Part shown: positions 32,940 through 64,000 of the stretch, one piece after another | Position numbering within the stretch: position 1 is the first letter of the stretch | Layout of the letters: the number at the start of each line of letters is the position of its first letter | DNA from: a virus | Length of the DNA: 64,000 nucleotides | Strand: one strand, 5' to 3' | Virus record (IMG/VR): IMGVR_UViG_3300045988_120652 | The notes under the pieces: generated by a model | The model's input: only the letters and a program-made list of their open reading frames with translations | What the model was told of the DNA's origin: nothing | Databases searched by the model: none | Program-made: the position numbers and the translations under genes

Positions 32940-33533
32940 TCAGTTAAACCATTTTACGGTTGTCTCGCCCTCATATCCTTTCTCCCACACGAACCAGGCG
33001 TAAGCCGCAGCGCTGCCGCCGTACTTGTCGAAGTCGCCATTCATAGCGCATTTCAGTCTTGACGAGCTTACCCAAACACGAATGGGGGGGGTAGAACGGA
33101 AGAGAGCGCGTCGAGCCTTGCCTTCGAGGAAAGTCAGCTTCAGGAACATCGCCACCTTCTTTCCTTCGGGGATGATGCTCAGAGCCTTTTCCACAAACAG
33201 CAGCGCATATTTGTAGGGAGGATTGGTAACGATGTTGCCGTCCCATTCCATATTGTCAATAGAGAGAAAGTCGGCCACCTCGCCGTAACCTCTATCTACA
33301 AGGTCGCGGCTCACCACCTCATACCCTGCTGTCTCCAACACTCTACTCATGTGTCCCTCGCCACACGACGGCTCAAGAATCCTGCCCTCAAACCGCTCCA
33401 GCTTGCACAGCCATTCCGTCGCCTTCGGCTCAGTGGCATAGTAATCCTCACGCTGCCTGTCCCCATCAGCATGATTACTCGCGCCTAATGTCTTGAACAC
33501 CGCAGCCGAGCCACCCACCCAGTCTTTAGCCAT
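32940..33533 (-). CDS. DNA N6-adenine methyltransferase (gamma-type order: motif I then NPPY)
   Basis: ILEPSCGEGHM (motif I) and IVTNPPYKY (motif IV). Start set at MAKDW. Contains a C8 run on the coding strand (33084-33091). Confidence 0.8.
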   Translation of the reverse strand: MAKDWVGGSAAVFKTLGASNHADGDRQREDYYATEPKATEWLCKLERFEGRILEPSCGEGHMSRVLETAGYEVVSRDLVDRGYGEVADFLSIDNMEWDGNIVTNPPYKYALLFVEKALSIIPEGKKVAMFLKLTFLEGKARRALFRSTPPIRVWVSSSRLKCAMNGDFDKYGGSAAAYAWFVWEKGYEGETTVKWFN

Positions 33534-33753
33534 TGTCAGTCTCCTTTCCTTGAAGTTCGCACAACGTGACATATTCGTTTTGCTGAGTAAACGGATCTTC
33601 CTCGGTAATCATAAAGTTGGTTTTCCTCTCCTTAAAGCCGAGAGCGTCGAGCATTTCATAAATATCCTCGTTCTGCATACCCTTTGTCACATCCTCCGTA
33701 TCATTGATGATGGAGACCGTTCCGCGACTGTAATCTAAGATTGATATATACAT
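33526..33753 (-). CDS. hypothetical protein (75 aa)
   Basis: Start set at MYISILDY, behind a CA-rich leader. Confidence 0.45.
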   Translation of the reverse strand: MYISILDYSRGTVSIINDTEDVTKGMQNEDIYEMLDALGFKERKTNFMITEEDPFTQQNEYVTLCELQGKETDNG

Positions 33754-33767
33754 AGTGTTTTGTGTTT

Positions 33768-33983
33768 TTAAAAATCGCCCAAATCCAGTTTCATCTGCTT
33801 GAACTTCTCGACATACCATTGTTTGTATGATTTGCCCGAAATCCACCAGTCGTAGATATTTTCCGCTATTTCGTTTTCTTGCTCCTCTGTCAAGCGGTCA
33901 GAAGAGGAGTTGGAAAACCCTGGCGCTGTGAGATTCCATACACCTCTGTTTCTTATCCCCAGTTGTCGTTGGTTCGTATCCAT
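33768..33983 (-). CDS. possible small ORF, or the true C-terminus of the PAPS-reductase-like gene
   Basis: MDTNQRQ...LTEEQENEIAENIYDWWISGKSYKQWYVEKFKQMKLDLGDF. It overlaps the 3' end of 33953..35041 in another frame. Confidence 0.3.
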   Translation of the reverse strand: MDTNQRQLGIRNRGVWNLTAPGFSNSSSDRLTEEQENEIAENIYDWWISGKSYKQWYVEKFKQMKLDLGDF

Positions 33984-35041
33984 TGTTTGCAGATGCGGAA
34001 TGTCGGCATAGCTGCTCCTCGTATTCTTGAGATTTCTCCCCCCCCCCAGTCCGACTGTTTGTAGAATCGTGCCGCGTCCAGTGTCCCGGGTCTGGATTTT
34101 TGATGTAGTCGCCTGTGTCCTGAGCAATCCTCTGACGTTTCTGAGAGGCATCCAGTCCTTGCGGATGTTCCACCAGATATATTCTCTTTTGAATACCCCC
34201 CGTTTCGGATAGCCTTGATAGCCCTTATCCAGTTGCGCTTGATATGCGGATAGCGTTCATTCTCGATGCGCTTCTGCTTTGCAGACGACATAGGGCAGCC
34301 GATGCAGCCTATGCGATGCCTGCCTTCGTCGTAGAGCGAGCAATGAGGGACCTTCACCACATCATTAAGAAACTCCCATACGTCTTGCTCGGTCCAATAG
34401 ATGATGGGTGAAATCAAAAGACTCTCTTTGCCGTGTATGCAACCTAACGTCTGTTCTTTATCAGCGTTAGTGATATTCACGCCCTGCTCTTTAGATTTAC
34501 GGCGAGCACGTTTTGCCCTCTGCTCCTGTCGGTATTCGTCCAACCCGTCGAGGTCGCCGCTAAACTTTCGGTTGTTTATCTCCACCTCATTGCGCTTTGC
34601 TCGGCGCGTGCTTTCTGCCTTGCGAATACCAATTAGCGTGACCTTGCCGGCACCTGCCGTTTCCTTGTATTCCTTGCAACACCAACGCACACGCTTTGTT
34701 GGCAAAATTTGCTTCTCAACAGCGTGCTGGAAAATTGATTTGCCAGGCTTTATAAGTTCCACTTCGGGATAGTTCTTCTTTACGAAGCGTATCACTTCGG
34801 GAGGGTCAACGCTCGTAAGGTTCATGTGACTCTGGAACCTCACTCCCGCCAACTGCGTCATGTGGTAAAGAGCCTGAGAGTCCTTGCCACCACTAAATGC
34901 CAGGTAATAACCTTGCTCTGCATCATAGTTGAGAGCAATCGTTTCCGCCTTCTGCAACAGTTCCACCGAGTGAAGCATCTGCTTCCGCAATCGTGCCGAA
35001 GCTCGTTCTAATGCTTCAGCAAGTGTAATGTCTATATTCAT
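33953..35041 (-). CDS. PAPS reductase-family protein (3' end uncertain)
   Basis: YYLAFSGGKDSQALYH (PP-loop SGGKDS). Also RWCCKEYKE and IGCIGCPM. The last ~80 aa are low-complexity and cross G6 and G10 homopolymers. Confidence 0.75.
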   Translation of the reverse strand: MNIDITLAEALERASARLRKQMLHSVELLQKAETIALNYDAEQGYYLAFSGGKDSQALYHMTQLAGVRFQSHMNLTSVDPPEVIRFVKKNYPEVELIKPGKSIFQHAVEKQILPTKRVRWCCKEYKETAGAGKVTLIGIRKAESTRRAKRNEVEINNRKFSGDLDGLDEYRQEQRAKRARRKSKEQGVNITNADKEQTLGCIHGKESLLISPIIYWTEQDVWEFLNDVVKVPHCSLYDEGRHRIGCIGCPMSSAKQKRIENERYPHIKRNWIRAIKAIRNGGYSKENISGGTSARTGCLSETSEDCSGHRRLHQKSRPGTLDAARFYKQSDWGGGEISRIRGAAMPTFRICKQWIRTNDNWG

Positions 35042-60077: not shown

Positions 60078-60587
60078 ATGAGAACATTCAAATTCAGAGG
60101 CAAGTGTACAGATCCTAAGTACGATGGCAAAACGGCATGTGGCTCGCTGCTTTCTTTCCCCAATGGAGAGACAAAGATTTTTGAGCACGACCACGACAAG
60201 ACGTTCAACTATTTCGGTGTTGACCCCGCGACCGTCTGCCAGTTCACCGGTTTCCTTGACAAGAACGGCAAGGAGATTTATGAAGGCGACGTGTTGCGGT
60301 CAGACGAATATCCTTATAGCTGCATCGGAGATAAAAAACGCGACAACTATTATGCCGTAGTTTATTACTGTGAGGAAGGAGCTTGCTTTGGCACTGTGAC
60401 GGCCAAGAATCCCAGTTCTGACGTAAGAGGCATTTCAGACGGCATACTTGATGATGTAGAGCGAGAGAAAATGAAGACCTTCGAGGTTGTCGGCAATATC
60501 CATGAAGAGAAGTGGCAACAATACGGCGAATATTTTAAGACTGAAGAAGAAAAGGAGGCAGACAATGATTTATGCAGAAGACCTTAG
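60078..60587 (+). CDS. YopX-family protein
   Basis: FKFRGK.., VDPATVCQFTGFLDKNGKEIYEGDVL and ..FEVVGNIHE match the YopX pattern. Confidence 0.8.
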   Translation: MRTFKFRGKCTDPKYDGKTACGSLLSFPNGETKIFEHDHDKTFNYFGVDPATVCQFTGFLDKNGKEIYEGDVLRSDEYPYSCIGDKKRDNYYAVVYYCEEGACFGTVTAKNPSSDVRGISDGILDDVEREKMKTFEVVGNIHEEKWQQYGEYFKTEEEKEADNDLCRRP

Positions 60588-61026
60588 AATAGGCGACATT
60601 GTGCAGATAAACAAAGACTGCATGTTTCCGAAAGACACGTTGTGCATCGTTACCGAAATCCATCCCGACCGACAGTATGAAGACAAGAAGGGAGTTGTCA
60701 GTCTGAAGGCTGTCAACGACGACGATGACGGACCATGGGGGGCTTGGTGCTGTAATATTGAAGGCGTGCCCGTCACGCCCGAAATACTTCGCAATAATGA
60801 CTTTAAGGAAGAGGTCGAGGGCAAGTACTTCACAAGACCAATTAAAGCCAGATTTGGCAGTTCCCTTGCCAGATATTTGGTTGTAGAACGGAAAAAATAC
60901 GCTTGGGCAATATTCATAAAGTATTACAACGTGACAGGCTTTGCACTCTTATGTCATATAAAGTACGTTCACGAACTACAGCTCGTCCTCAAGATAATGA
61001 AATTTAGTCCGGAAATTAAAGTATAG
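60565..61026 (+). CDS. hypothetical protein (153 aa)
   Basis: Start set at MIYAEDLRIGD, overlapping the previous gene by 23 nt. Confidence 0.5.
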   Translation: MIYAEDLRIGDIVQINKDCMFPKDTLCIVTEIHPDRQYEDKKGVVSLKAVNDDDDGPWGAWCCNIEGVPVTPEILRNNDFKEEVEGKYFTRPIKARFGSSLARYLVVERKKYAWAIFIKYYNVTGFALLCHIKYVHELQLVLKIMKFSPEIKV

Positions 61027-61030
61027 CTCT

Positions 61031-61137
61031 ATGAAAGCAAAAAACAAGGTGCTGCTTGACAGAAACGAGAGTTCTCGCCCGCCCTTCTAGCCACCGACTA
61101 CAAATGCCTACACTGTATAATGATTGAATATGATTAA
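61031..61137 (+). other. degenerate TRD-like module 1 (frame-broken)
   Basis: ATG 61031 gives MKAKNKVLLDRNESSRPPF then a stop. The -1 frame reads EFSPALLATDYKCLHCIMIEYD then a stop. About 90% DNA identity to 62428-62495. Confidence 0.4.
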
Positions 61138-61264
61138 GCAGCATCCATTCGACGATTTTCATCAGCGCATCTATTGGAGCGGAACCTGTATAGGAACCGT
61201 AACTCAACAATGGGGTAATCCTGCGCCTCGTCACGGATGGAGATTAATGATTGAATATGACTGA
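61130..61264 (+). CDS. TRD-like mini-cistron 2 (44 aa)
   Basis: MIKQHPFDDFHQRIYWSGTCIGTVTQQWGNPAPRHGWRLMIEYD. The ATG overlaps the previous stop and the ORF ends in the conserved junction. Confidence 0.4.
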   Translation: MIKQHPFDDFHQRIYWSGTCIGTVTQQWGNPAPRHGWRLMIEYD

Positions 61265-61574
61265 CCCTCACTACAAACGCGGCACCATCCGCAAGGATGG
61301 CAAGCTGTATGGCCGCTATCCCGACGGATCGCTCTACCGCATCTACTCCTCCACCGACCTACCTTTCCTACAGTTGGTGGACCGAGCGGGCGAGACGTTC
61401 CTACGCATACGCCAAGCCACCGAGCTGGGCTACACCGACTGTCCCTGCCCTGGAGCCGCCGACCTAAGTTATCCGTCCTCGGCTCTGAGGCGTAGTCGCA
61501 CAGTCGGGAGGGGTAAGCTCGTAAACGCTCTGACCGCTGCAAGTGGCGGAATTTGCGTGTTTGTTGAATTATAA
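61257..61574 (+). CDS. TRD-like cistron 3 (105 aa)
   Basis: ..RIRQATELGYTDCPCPGAADLSYPSSALRRSRTVGRGKLVNALTAASGG.. resembles the post-motif-VIII region of C5-MTases (..AT..GY...GD...L..P.S..RRGRV....TLT). Confidence 0.45.
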   Translation: MTDPHYKRGTIRKDGKLYGRYPDGSLYRIYSSTDLPFLQLVDRAGETFLRIRQATELGYTDCPCPGAADLSYPSSALRRSRTVGRGKLVNALTAASGGICVFVEL

Positions 61575-61589
61575 AAGGAGAAATAAATT

Positions 61590-61961
61590 ATGATTATAAC
61601 GAATGATTGGCGGCTCTGGCTCGCATCAATGTTGTTTACGTTTGTCGTAACAATTTTGTTTATGGCTTACATTTGGTGGACAGAGCGAAAGCTAAAGAAA
61701 GAGATAAAAAATGATAGAGAAATAGACTATCAGAATTGTGATGGGTATTTCTTGTGTGTGTTTACCAAAGGTGGTGGATGCGATTTGCACAGAGCCTCGG
61801 ATGTCAAGCAGGTTGTTTCGTCTGTAAATAAAGATTACATCAACGTAATAATGACAGATGGTGAAGTAACGCATTATGAAGATGTCGTATCGTATGAGTT
61901 CAAACACGTTTTAGATTTGTCCTTGTATAATTTGAATACAGTAAAAAGAGTAGCTGAATAG
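61590..61961 (+). CDS. hypothetical membrane protein (123 aa), AT-rich insert
   Basis: N-terminal TM helix (WLASMLFTFVVTILFMAYIWW). Composition is visibly more AT-rich than the flanks. Confidence 0.5.
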   Translation: MIITNDWRLWLASMLFTFVVTILFMAYIWWTERKLKKEIKNDREIDYQNCDGYFLCVFTKGGGCDLHRASDVKQVVSSVNKDYINVIMTDGEVTHYEDVVSYEFKHVLDLSLYNLNTVKRVAE

Positions 61962-61990
61962 GCTTGTAGAACATTTAACTAATAAAATTT

Positions 61991-62362
61991 ATGAAAAGAG
62001 AAAAACGACTGCCCGATGTGCTGTTAATGTCGGCTAAAGCATCCACCTTAATGTCAAACTCAACCAAGGACGCTTGCATCTGCGTCGAGTCTGACGAACA
62101 AAGTGTAAGTTTTAAGGACGAACCGTCGGAAGGTGTAACGATGGATATTACAGCCGAGTATCGCAACATCGTTCAGTTGTGGCACCCTGCCACAGAAAAG
62201 CCTCATTGCATAGGTCAACTTCTCTGTTGGTGTTACGACAGAACATTCTTCGTACACAACCATTACAGCCATGACGATGAAAATTGGCATTTATTCATCA
62301 GCACTAACAACATAAAGCGTTATTGCTATATTTCCAATTTGGAACCCGAATGGTTTATTTGA
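61991..62362 (+). CDS. hypothetical protein (123 aa), AT-rich insert
   Basis: ATG ORF. No motif recognised. Confidence 0.5.
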   Translation: MKREKRLPDVLLMSAKASTLMSNSTKDACICVESDEQSVSFKDEPSEGVTMDITAEYRNIVQLWHPATEKPHCIGQLLCWCYDRTFFVHNHYSHDDENWHLFISTNNIKRYCYISNLEPEWFI

Positions 62363-62363
62363 G

Positions 62364-62495
62364 ATGACTGACATTAAGATATCCGTGCATCCCGTTAGCC
62401 ATCGGCTCGAATGGCGAGGATGGGGTGATTTCTCGCCCTCCCTTCGAGCCACCGACTACAAATGCCCACACTGTATAATGATTGAATATGACTAA
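62364..62495 (+). CDS. TRD-like mini-cistron 4 (43 aa)
   Basis: MTDIKISVHPVSHRLEWRGWGDFSPSLRATDYKCPHCIMIEYD. Confidence 0.4.
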   Translation: MTDIKISVHPVSHRLEWRGWGDFSPSLRATDYKCPHCIMIEYD

Positions 62496-62616
62496 TCTTG
62501 ACTTCTACCAATATCCTCGTGGCAAAAACGGGGGGGTACTAAACACTATGATTTGTCCGACCGTTACTATATCTTCATGGCAGCACAACTATTTTCTGAT
62601 TGAAGAATATGATTGA
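62488..62616 (+). CDS. TRD-like mini-cistron 5 (42 aa)
   Basis: MTNLDFYQYPRGKNGGVLNTMICPTVTISSWQHNYFLIEEYD. Confidence 0.4.
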   Translation: MTNLDFYQYPRGKNGGVLNTMICPTVTISSWQHNYFLIEEYD

Positions 62617-62749
62617 CATCCAACCCTTAAATGTCTGTATGGGAGGAATAGCAGTAACACTGAATACACGATACGAGCGACTTTGCATTGAGCATTTGAT
62701 GTCACTTGCCCACTTTCCGAGGACAGGCGTAATGATAGAATACGAATAA
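62609..62749 (+). CDS. TRD-like mini-cistron 6 (46 aa)
   Basis: MIDIQPLNVCMGGIAVTLNTRYERLCIEHLMSLAHFPRTGVMIEYE. Confidence 0.4.
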   Translation: MIDIQPLNVCMGGIAVTLNTRYERLCIEHLMSLAHFPRTGVMIEYE

Positions 62750-62759
62750 CAGTAACTAT

Positions 62760-63197
62760 ATGATCACAAAACTCAATTTCACCGACCGCACCATCAAGAG
62801 CTATGCCATCCGCAAGCTCACGCCCAAGGAGTGTTTCCGCTTGATGGGCGTTCGCGACAACGTAATCGGCACGATGCAGAGCAGCAATGCCCAGGCAGCC
62901 GAACGTCTGCCCGACTGGAAGGGCAAGGGTAAACCCGAAGACATGGCTATATCTGCATCACAGCAGTACAAGCAAGCTGGAAACAGCATCGTGGTGGACG
63001 TGTTGGCCCACATCTACGAGCAGCTTTTCTACCCCGCCCCGCCCAAGCCTCGCCCTGGCGAACAGCTCACGCTCTTCGACGACCTCGAAGACTCGCTGCC
63101 CGCTTTGCCGCCCCCCCCGCAGCCGACAAGAACGAGGAGAAGATATTCCTCACCACGTTCTCCGGCTACGACTCTCAGCTCATGGCAGCCGACGTGA
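62760..63197 (+). CDS. C5-cytosine methyltransferase C-terminal segment (motifs IX-X) plus Pro-rich linker; frame ends after a C8 tract
   Basis: IRKLTPKECFRLMGV (motif IX) and QYKQAGNSIVVDVL (motif X). After CCCCCCCC (63111-63118) the frame reads a low-complexity tail to TGA 63195-63197. Confidence 0.65.
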   Translation: MITKLNFTDRTIKSYAIRKLTPKECFRLMGVRDNVIGTMQSSNAQAAERLPDWKGKGKPEDMAISASQQYKQAGNSIVVDVLAHIYEQLFYPAPPKPRPGEQLTLFDDLEDSLPALPPPPQPTRTRRRYSSPRSPATTLSSWQPT

Positions 63198-64000
63198 TAC
63201 GCGAGTGGCATCCCGACTTCCGATGGACGTGCAAGGGATGGAGCGACATCGACAAATACGCCTGTCAGATGCACAACCTCGTCTTCCCTCAGTTTGCCGA
63301 CTGCGCCCTGGGCGACATCACCAAGATTGACTGGCACGAGGTGAAACGCTCGCTCAAAGGCCGCGAGGTTGACCTCTTCACCTATTCCTCGCCCTGCCAG
63401 GACATCAGTCAGGCTGGCAAGCAGATGGGTTTGCAGGAGGGCAGCGATACCCGAAGCGCACTGCTTTGGCGTGTGGCGGATGCCGTGGAGGTGCTTCGCC
63501 CGAAGTATCTCTTGCAGGAGAACGTGGCGGCACTGGTAAGCCAGAAGTTCATGCCCGACTTTCAGAAGTGGCTCGACAAACTCTCCTCGCTCGGCTATGT
63601 CTCTCGCTGGGCTCGTCTTAACGCCAAGAACTACGGTGTGCCGCAGAACCGCGACCGTGTGTTCTGCCTCTCCATGCGCCGTGACGTGGCCTTCGACTAT
63701 CAGTTTCCCGAACCCTTCGAGCTGCTTATCCGACTGGAGGATGTGCTCGAAGAGGAAGTGTCCGACCGCTATTTCCTCAAGGATGATGCCGTGAGCAAGT
63801 TCCTCAAGGCAAACGACTCTGACAATGCCTTATTCCTTCAATTCGACCTGCCACCGACACATGAGGCGGCAATGTTCCTCAAGACATGGCTCACGCTGCG
63901 CATGAACACTTTCAACGGATGGGAGAGGGATTTGGACGAACTGCGCGATTGCATCGAGAACGAGCGAGATGTATTAAACAGCGATTTTGCAAGTTTCAGC
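63119..64000 (+). CDS. C5-cytosine methyltransferase N-terminal catalytic region (motifs I-VIII), no own start codon, runs off the window
   Basis: KIFLTTFSGYDSQ (motif I), YSSPCQDISQAGK (IV), LLQENV (VI) and YGVPQNRDRVF (VIII). The frame is open from the C8 tract to 64000. The first in-frame ATG (63182) lies after motif I. Confidence 0.8.

Follow-up and report, generated by a model that had tools for sequence, protein, structure and literature searches.

The multispecific C5-cytosine DNA methyltransferases (C5-MTases) of the Bacillus phages SPR, phi3T, rho11s, and H2 have long served as a model of modular DNA recognition. For circularly permuted or split C5-MTases, only a handful of curiosities are, to our knowledge, on record. 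The natural permuted enzymes include M.BssHII, M.Alw26I, M2.Eco31I, M.Esp3I, and M2.BsaI, with 27 recorded in REBASE (PMC5944983), and the split ones are represented by M.AquI and M.EcoHK31I, each with an alpha and a beta part, alongside engineered fragment complementation of M.SssI, M.MpeI, and GGCC MTases (PMC5944983, PMC3404938, PMC2836561). Phase-variable MTases are exemplified by the polyG-controlled Type IIG enzyme of Campylobacter (PMC4889913), and contingency loci of phages by the polyG tracts of Fletchervirus, a polyG in one methylase gene of the Bordetella phage BPP-1, and cases in T2/T4 (bioRxiv 10.1101/2025.10.21.683753). Permuted C5-MTases, homopolymer-switched MTases, and polyG tracts in phage genes are therefore already known; our literature search found no description of a permuted core lacking a target-recognition domain (TRD) that is accompanied by arrays of stand-alone TRD genes. 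We predict such an arrangement at the 3' end of a 64,000-nucleotide (nt) stretch of viral DNA, IMG/VR record IMGVR_UViG_3300045988_120652 (the window hereafter), in which the permuted core gene is interrupted by a run of eight cytosines (C8). We argue that this run is probably a real OFF allele of a hypermutable tract in the core gene, and not an assembly error or a site of programmed frameshifting.

The C5-MTase motifs I, IV, VI, VIII, IX, and X are all present in the window, split over two reading frames (Table 1). The first open reading frame (ORF) opens with MITKLNFTDRTIKSYAIRKLTPKECFRLMG, such that only 16 residues lie N-terminal of motif IX (IRKLTPKECFRLMG), and proceeds through motif X (QAGNSIVVDV, within ..QQYKQAGNSIVVDVLAHIY) to a Pro-rich stretch terminating in ..DSLPALPPP, with the linker reading to PAPPKPRPGEQLTLFDDLEDSLPALPPP. 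The C8 run (CCCCCCCC) falls in the linker codons and moves all downstream sequence into the +2 frame, which from 63119 reads AADKNEEKIFLTTFSGYDSQ (motif I, FSGYDSQ), SSPCQDIS (motif IV, with the catalytic Cys), QENV (motif VI), and QNRDRVF (motif VIII), and has no stop up to 64000. The Pfam profile PF00145 matches the first ORF over positions 270-322 of its 324 (E = 6.7e-8) and the second frame over positions 24-216 (E = 2.8e-40). The latter frame is open from 62933, with ATG, GTG, and TTG all absent before motif I and the earliest ATG at 63182. Thus, translation and the Pfam matches bear out what a first-pass annotation had read from the letters: motifs IX and X and a Pro-rich linker in the first ORF, the remaining motifs in another frame after C8, and no start codon before motif I. 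With the frame broken by C8 and motif I lacking a preceding start, the window encodes no uninterrupted polypeptide with all the motifs; the only ATG-initiated remainder (296 aa) starts after motif I and is, therefore, without the AdoMet (S-adenosylmethionine)-binding motif.

With one C added to the run, the resulting sequence (414 aa) can be aligned end to end (100% of its length) with single proteins of 434-448 aa, to which it is 88-96% identical; these fall into >100 protein clusters and come from phage-sized contigs, the largest of 108 kb. Such full-length agreement with single relatives is far beyond chance. Further, 80 IMG/VR loci encode the same IX-X-linker-I-VIII protein, with IX and I sharing a frame wherever both could be located, although three of these loci (L068, L071, and L075) are disrupted elsewhere. 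Motif X comes ahead of motif I and the chain is permuted within the variable region, an order that the single ORFs of the relatives share. The core is, hence, a circularly permuted C5-MTase of the M.BssHII kind, with its chain cut in the variable region, which was one of the two structural interpretations first offered for it. The other held that an upstream enzyme ends in IX-X and is joined to, or next to, a downstream enzyme that begins with I-VIII, and the motif order was compatible with this as long as the sequence ended at 64000; the suggestion was accordingly made to look further downstream for a second TRD and motifs IX-X. Neither was found: locus L081, a 100% match to the window, extends the sequence, and in it the frame terminates 72 nt after position 64000 (..SFSEYHTFPCEGFEELFKENMKRKKE and stop, i.e., ...KENMKRKKE), which establishes a single permuted enzyme. 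A tblastn search with the canonical-order protein P0261 detected no motifs I-VIII upstream of the core and no other C5-MTase gene in the 64 kb. Together with the single-protein relatives, these results refute the two-enzyme reading, to which we attach practically no credence. The intact core comprises 437 aa, with motifs IX-X, a Pro-rich linker of ~35 residues, motifs I-VIII, and a tail of ~125 residues.

Like the enzymes of the M.BssHII kind, this core has IX-X before I-VIII in one gene and a permutation point between VIII and IX. Unlike them, it does not keep a TRD in the chain: the natural permuted enzymes are mostly of 'Type H' (TRD-IX-X-I-VIII), whereas here nothing but the 16 residues stands before motif IX. 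Distant permuted relatives (P0132, P0137, P0171, and P0229) do carry an N-terminal TRD in cis, and in some of the fusions, such as that of P0171, the initiator Met of the core persists (..YFISLE-HNKDRKEQT-MIAQIN..). An AlphaFold model of P0171 from a 21-row alignment is good for the core (predicted template modeling score, pTM, 0.77), while its TRD (residues 1-61) has predicted local distance difference test (pLDDT) values <50 and is uninformative on TRD docking; in Foldseek searches with this model, only the I-VIII part matched M.HhaI, M.MpeI, and Dcm (TM ~0.5). In a further variant, the 329-aa protein P0122 starts at a Met of its own immediately ahead of motif I, shares the tail, and constitutes a stand-alone I-VIII half; the core may, thus, be split at the linker in some lineages, as in M.AquI. 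A megablast search of GenBank phages with 60900-64000 returned no match.

At the linker site the homopolymer occurs in none of the 80 IMG/VR viral loci, which read ..TTGCCGCCCACCGCAGCC.. (LPPTAA) or variants thereof, with CCCACC at the site in most relatives. Four of the 120 protein clusters listed read LPPPAAD or LPPPDAD, and their DNA has an in-frame C6; these C6 alleles (L138, L139, L154, and L155) encode proteins of 438-442 aa. Out-of-frame alleles, found via the 90% cluster of the window's truncated product, comprise C5 in L132 (ERZ15609873) and L133 (ERR10688898) and C7 in L131 (ERR14375853) and, in another background, in L135 (SRR25477984), to which the window adds C8, i.e., C6 plus two. 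Among the C5, C6, C7, and C8 alleles only C6 is in frame, and the samples differ. As the tract-bearing genes are 93-97% identical to one another, the alleles are separate events. No C9 allele was seen among the tract-bearing relatives, the natural in-frame length being C6; hence, the original proposal that C9 would join the two frames is right insofar as one extra C gives a sequence aligning full-length to the relatives, but not as to the length that nature uses. A census of tract alleles by DNA pattern was empty for IMG/VR, and what it matched in JGI metagenomes was due to chance.

Homopolymers are classic sites of error, and the in-frame tract-bearing relatives are C6 in four of four cases, both of which are in keeping with a sequencing or assembly error in an ordinary intact permuted MTase gene whose true sequence is C6 or C9. 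We consider this improbable. The exact 145-aa frameshift product is present on five public contigs. An ENA scaffold of 102,235 bp (SAMN03283275) matches the window at 100% identity over 11.2 kb, as does a Logan contig of run SRR1761702 over 7.1 kb, with C8 included in each, which identifies both as the same phage; the C8 is, thus, reproduced in at least two assemblies from different pipelines. Run SRR1761702, whose accession dates from 2015, we take to be short-read Illumina data, and a change of +2 (C8 vs C6) is an unlikely consensus error on that platform. Moreover, C5 and C7 stand at this site in other samples, and similar series occur in three other genes considered below.

Alternatively, the full-length core might be produced from C8 by programmed recoding, either through -1 ribosomal frameshifting or through transcriptional slippage adding one C. 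The 0-frame heptamer C_CCC_CCG (63113-63119) formally fits the X_XXY_YYZ pattern, a -1 slip on it would yield exactly ..LPPPPAADKNEEK, and there is a hairpin downstream of the tract (-22.3 kcal/mol, z = -1.9). However, the hairpin begins ~1 nt past the heptamer, against the 5-9 nt expected for a stimulatory structure, 10 of 200 shuffled sequences fold as well, and its arms are the coding sequence of motif I, which is found in all relatives. The slippery site itself is not conserved, as the tract is missing from each of the 80 viral loci, and the frameshifted alleles are divided between the two wrong frames (C7 vs C5/C8), such that no single rule would mend both. Recoding, therefore, appears very improbable.

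Under the reading we favor, that of a real OFF allele, the linker codons CCG-CCC-ACC would have turned into a C run in one sub-lineage, and this run would change length by slipped-strand mispairing in replication, with C6 keeping the frame. C8 would then put motifs I-VIII out of frame with no start to rescue motif I, so that the dominant genotype in the sample would be an OFF (null) core allele, which a slip of +1 or -2 would turn ON again. We infer that replication slippage causes the length changes, that these can revert within a short time, and that methylation is lost in the OFF state. The earlier suggestion that the homopolymer gates the catalytic half is, to this extent, supported as a natural ON/OFF polymorphism across samples, with the tract as a candidate switch; it is limited by the absence of the tract from most relatives.

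Comparable runs are found in other genes of this phage and its relatives. The window contains three G or C runs of at least 8 where ~0.8 are expected; besides the C8 of the core, its runs include G8 (33084-33091), C10 (34038-34047), G7 (62530-62536), and C7 at 18709. As a control we fetched 48 loci via the N-terminal part of a PAPS-reductase-like gene (33953..35041, minus strand), a selection that is blind to tract state. In the neighboring small gene for an NPPY amino-methyltransferase (NPPY MTase), the tract TCTAC-C(n)-ATTCG is in frame at n=8 in the window and eight loci and out of frame in nine loci (n=7 in four, n=9 in four, and n=6 in one), with the tract-less complete loci in frame in four of four cases. 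Unlike the tract of the C5 core, that of the NPPY MTase is maintained in the clade, and the gene has the appearance of a conserved phage-MTase contingency locus. The PAPS-reductase-like gene has G runs ~841 and ~997 nt from its start. Across 39 related loci their lengths vary between 6 and 10, and with them the C-terminal frame of the gene; in the window the conserved C-terminal peptide (..EQENEIAENIYDWWISGKSYKQWY..) lies in ORF 33768..34151, in another frame than the gene body. Finally, one of the short ORFs upstream of the core that are predicted below to encode TRDs (family 0) bears G7 in the window, G8 in L001, G6 in L004, and no run in L009; both G8 and G6 break its frame, suggesting that this one TRD might be switched independently. 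Thus, it is a property of this phage clade that its DNA-modification genes carry G/C runs of variable length, and the likeliest interpretation of C8 is accordingly a real slippage allele. As in known phase-variable MTases, an in-ORF homopolymer sets the frame, and ON and OFF length variants occur among close relatives. In contrast to them, the C5 core tract is young and unconserved, the conserved tract of the clade being the one in the NPPY MTase gene.

The core itself has no TRD, and recognition may come in trans from an array of five mini-ORFs immediately upstream of it. About 60 of the fetched viral loci bear 1-7 such mini-ORFs, each with its own ATG and stop, belonging to at least eight families in varied combinations. 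In the window, four of the five end in ..(I/L/M)IE(E)Y(D/E) and one in ..VFVEL. Neighboring mini-ORFs overlap by 8 nt (ATGAnTRA) inside a repeated TAATGATTGAATATGA; mini-ORFs preceding another one finish in the codons TAT-GAx, from which the following ATG arises, and those preceding the core in TAC-AAA or TAC-GAA. The last one, of family 2, stops 10 nt before the core ATG and appears in NCBI nr as the hypothetical protein DAE40411.1. The ratio of nonsynonymous to synonymous substitution rates (dN/dS) is 0.11-0.27 in six of the families; these are under purifying selection, and all five window copies are intact.

Profiles of these families match long C5-MTases of canonical motif order between motifs VIII and IX (E = 1e-8 to 5e-14), and several families often match one protein (e.g., P0261, P0231, P0190, and P0142), which marks the latter as multi-TRD enzymes. 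In tblastn comparisons, P0261 aligns piecewise with the window: residues 302-360 with 61386-61562 (family 1), 490-536 with 62373-62489 (family 4), 577-648 with 62793-63077 (motifs IX-X), and 2-202 with 63128-63778 (motifs I-VIII). Because both the profiles and the P0261 segments match the TRD regions of canonical multi-TRD MTases, we identify the upstream mini-ORFs, on sequence grounds, as TRDs. In PDB sequence searches, a chimera of the family 4 mini-ORF and the core N-terminus aligns over the junction with the Dcm structure 3lx6 at an E-value of only 5e-4, and an equivalent chimera with family 1 aligned in motifs IX-X and not in the TRD. Pfam has no family for any of the mini-ORFs. Family 1 (105 aa) has 205 homologues, of which the 120 listed span 78-154 aa, with no full-length MTase among those listed. 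The order (TRDs)-IX-X-I-VIII initially proposed for the enzyme consequently holds as a gene order but not for the polypeptide, as the predicted TRDs are separate mini-ORFs outside it. Two other views of the mini-ORFs, as silent recombination cassettes and as decay debris, were rejected or down-weighted, in the latter case in light of the purifying selection on the families.

This last point also bears on the possibility that the core gene is undergoing neutral decay, i.e., one-way pseudogenization of a dispensable accessory gene, in which the C run is merely a mutational weak spot without benefit. Several observations favor decay and weigh against a maintained switch. The tract is recent and restricted to one lineage; it is absent from most relatives, is not maintained across the lineage, and is, therefore, not an anciently conserved switch. 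The same gene is frameshifted away from long runs in other samples (L134, L136, L137, P0124, and P0126), and may simply be lost often. The 4:4 ratio of ON to OFF alleles is biased, for the out-of-frame alleles were sought among truncated proteins. Further, a start-less remnant of a family 4 mini-ORF at the upstream edge of the array shows that the module gathers debris. Against decay stand the five adjoining intact TRD mini-ORFs with their selectively constrained families, the repeated occurrence of ON/OFF series, systematic in appearance, across several of the clade's modification genes, and the rest of the core frame, which is stop-free and 94-98% identical to intact relatives, such that any inactivation must be very recent. 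On balance, we regard neutral decay as unlikely, though deserving of serious consideration.

More tentatively, the locus might encode a plug-in multispecific C5-MTase, in which the TRD-less permuted core binds separately translated, interchangeable TRD mini-proteins, and the core and at least one TRD gene are switched independently by G/C homopolymers, resulting in a combinatorial, phase-variable pattern of 5-methylcytosine. The 1-7 TRDs per phage, drawn from at least eight families, would then be exchanged between phages at the conserved ..IEY(D/E)-stop/ATG junction. Action of the TRDs in trans would be structurally sensible, as both chain ends of the core flank the usual TRD site, and split MTases and engineered fragment complementation offer precedents. 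As in the split enzymes, parts of the fold are on separate genes and the cut is in the variable region, and the known split enzymes reassemble to activity; they, however, consist of two fixed halves, whereas here the candidate detached part is the TRD alone (42-105 aa), in 1-7 mini-genes per phage. With the multispecific MTases (those of the Bacillus phages and P0261, P0231, P0190, and P0197) the locus would share several short TRDs for one core, and the mini-ORFs are homologous to such TRDs; those enzymes, in contrast, have tandem TRDs in one chain between VIII and IX, while the window has separate ORFs, partly separated by unrelated genes (61590-62362), and a permuted core. Five TRD families adjoin one core in the window, and their joint use is a candidate only. 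In the loci L058-L066, L011, L062, and L064, the TRD-less core has no recognizable mini-ORF within ~1.4 kb upstream; either the TRDs are elsewhere in the genome or the core is able to act without them.

Table 1. Features of the core gene, the predicted TRD array, and other tract-bearing genes in the window (hidden Markov model, HMM)
Feature	Position	Strand	Remarks
NPPY MTase gene	32940..33572	-	C8 on sense strand, tract 33084-33091
PAPS-reductase-like gene region	33768-35041	-	C10 at 34038-34047; G6 ~841 nt from ATG
Start-less remnant of family 4 3' end	61069..61137	+	93% identical to 62427-62495
TRD mini-ORF, family 5, 44 aa	61130..61264	+	..IGTVTQQWG..WRLMIEYD, stop; HMM E 1.3e-10; 8-nt overlap with next ATG
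TRD mini-ORF, family 1, 105 aa	61257..61574	+	..IRQATELGY..SALRRSRTVG..ALTAAS..CVFVEL, stop; HMM E 5e-14; dN/dS 0.11
TRD mini-ORF, family 4, 43 aa	62364..62495	+	..SPSLRATDYKCPHCIMIEYD, stop; HMM E 3.5e-14
TRD mini-ORF, family 0, 42 aa	62488..62616	+	..ICPTVT..FLIEEYD, stop; HMM E down to 3e-12
TRD mini-ORF, family 2, 46 aa	62609..62749	+	..IAVTLNTRY..GVMIEYE, stop; dN/dS 0.27
Core, first third (16 residues, motifs IX and X, Pro-rich linker)	62760..63118	+	aligns to residues 1-119 of relatives
ORF as it stands, 145 aa (IX-X, linker, 25-residue out-of-frame tail)	62760..63197	+	product called on 5 public contigs
C8 homopolymer	63111..63118	+	direct reading; relatives have CCGCCCACCGCA without a run
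Catalytic part (motifs I, IV, VI, VIII, start of ~125-aa C-terminal tail)	63119..64000	+ (+2 frame)	PF00145
ATG-initiated remainder, the only one	63182..64000	+	begins past motif I; 296-aa gene in public assemblies

The unrelated genes amid the array are two AT-rich ORFs of 123 aa (61590-61961 and 61991-62362), which recur in place in L001, L041, and L067; the first has a predicted N-terminal membrane helix. Directly upstream of the array are a YopX-family gene (60078-60587) and a conserved gene of 150-180 aa (60487-61026), both common to many relatives. The gene content between these YopX-side neighbors and the core varies strongly by phage, which points to a recombination hot spot. The window derives from a tailed gut phage of ~102 kb with an NAD-dependent ligase, a sliding clamp, a terminase, a protease, and several MTases; contigs of close relatives were binned with Prevotella metagenome-assembled genomes, a weak hint of Prevotella as the host.

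These observations bring the permuted and split C5-MTases together with the idea of multispecificity in a large and widespread clade of human-gut phages, represented by hundreds of protein clusters. The pattern emerging across the clade is that of a permuted catalytic core that has lost its recognition domain and is adjoined by arrays of predicted stand-alone TRD mini-genes. If the TRDs do act in trans, we know of no earlier natural C5-MTase whose specificity subunits can be exchanged, in the manner of HsdS in Type I systems, and the enzyme could serve as a ready scaffold for engineering methylation specificity. The recurrence of length-variable G/C runs in four DNA-modification genes also makes phage 'contingency loci' testable in abundant gut phages. 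More practically, it cautions annotators that, in these phages, genes with a frameshift and 'hypothetical' genes of 40 aa probably have meaning. If the plug-in reading is true, a phage population would hedge in this way between methylation-sensitive and methylation-dependent restriction by its hosts.

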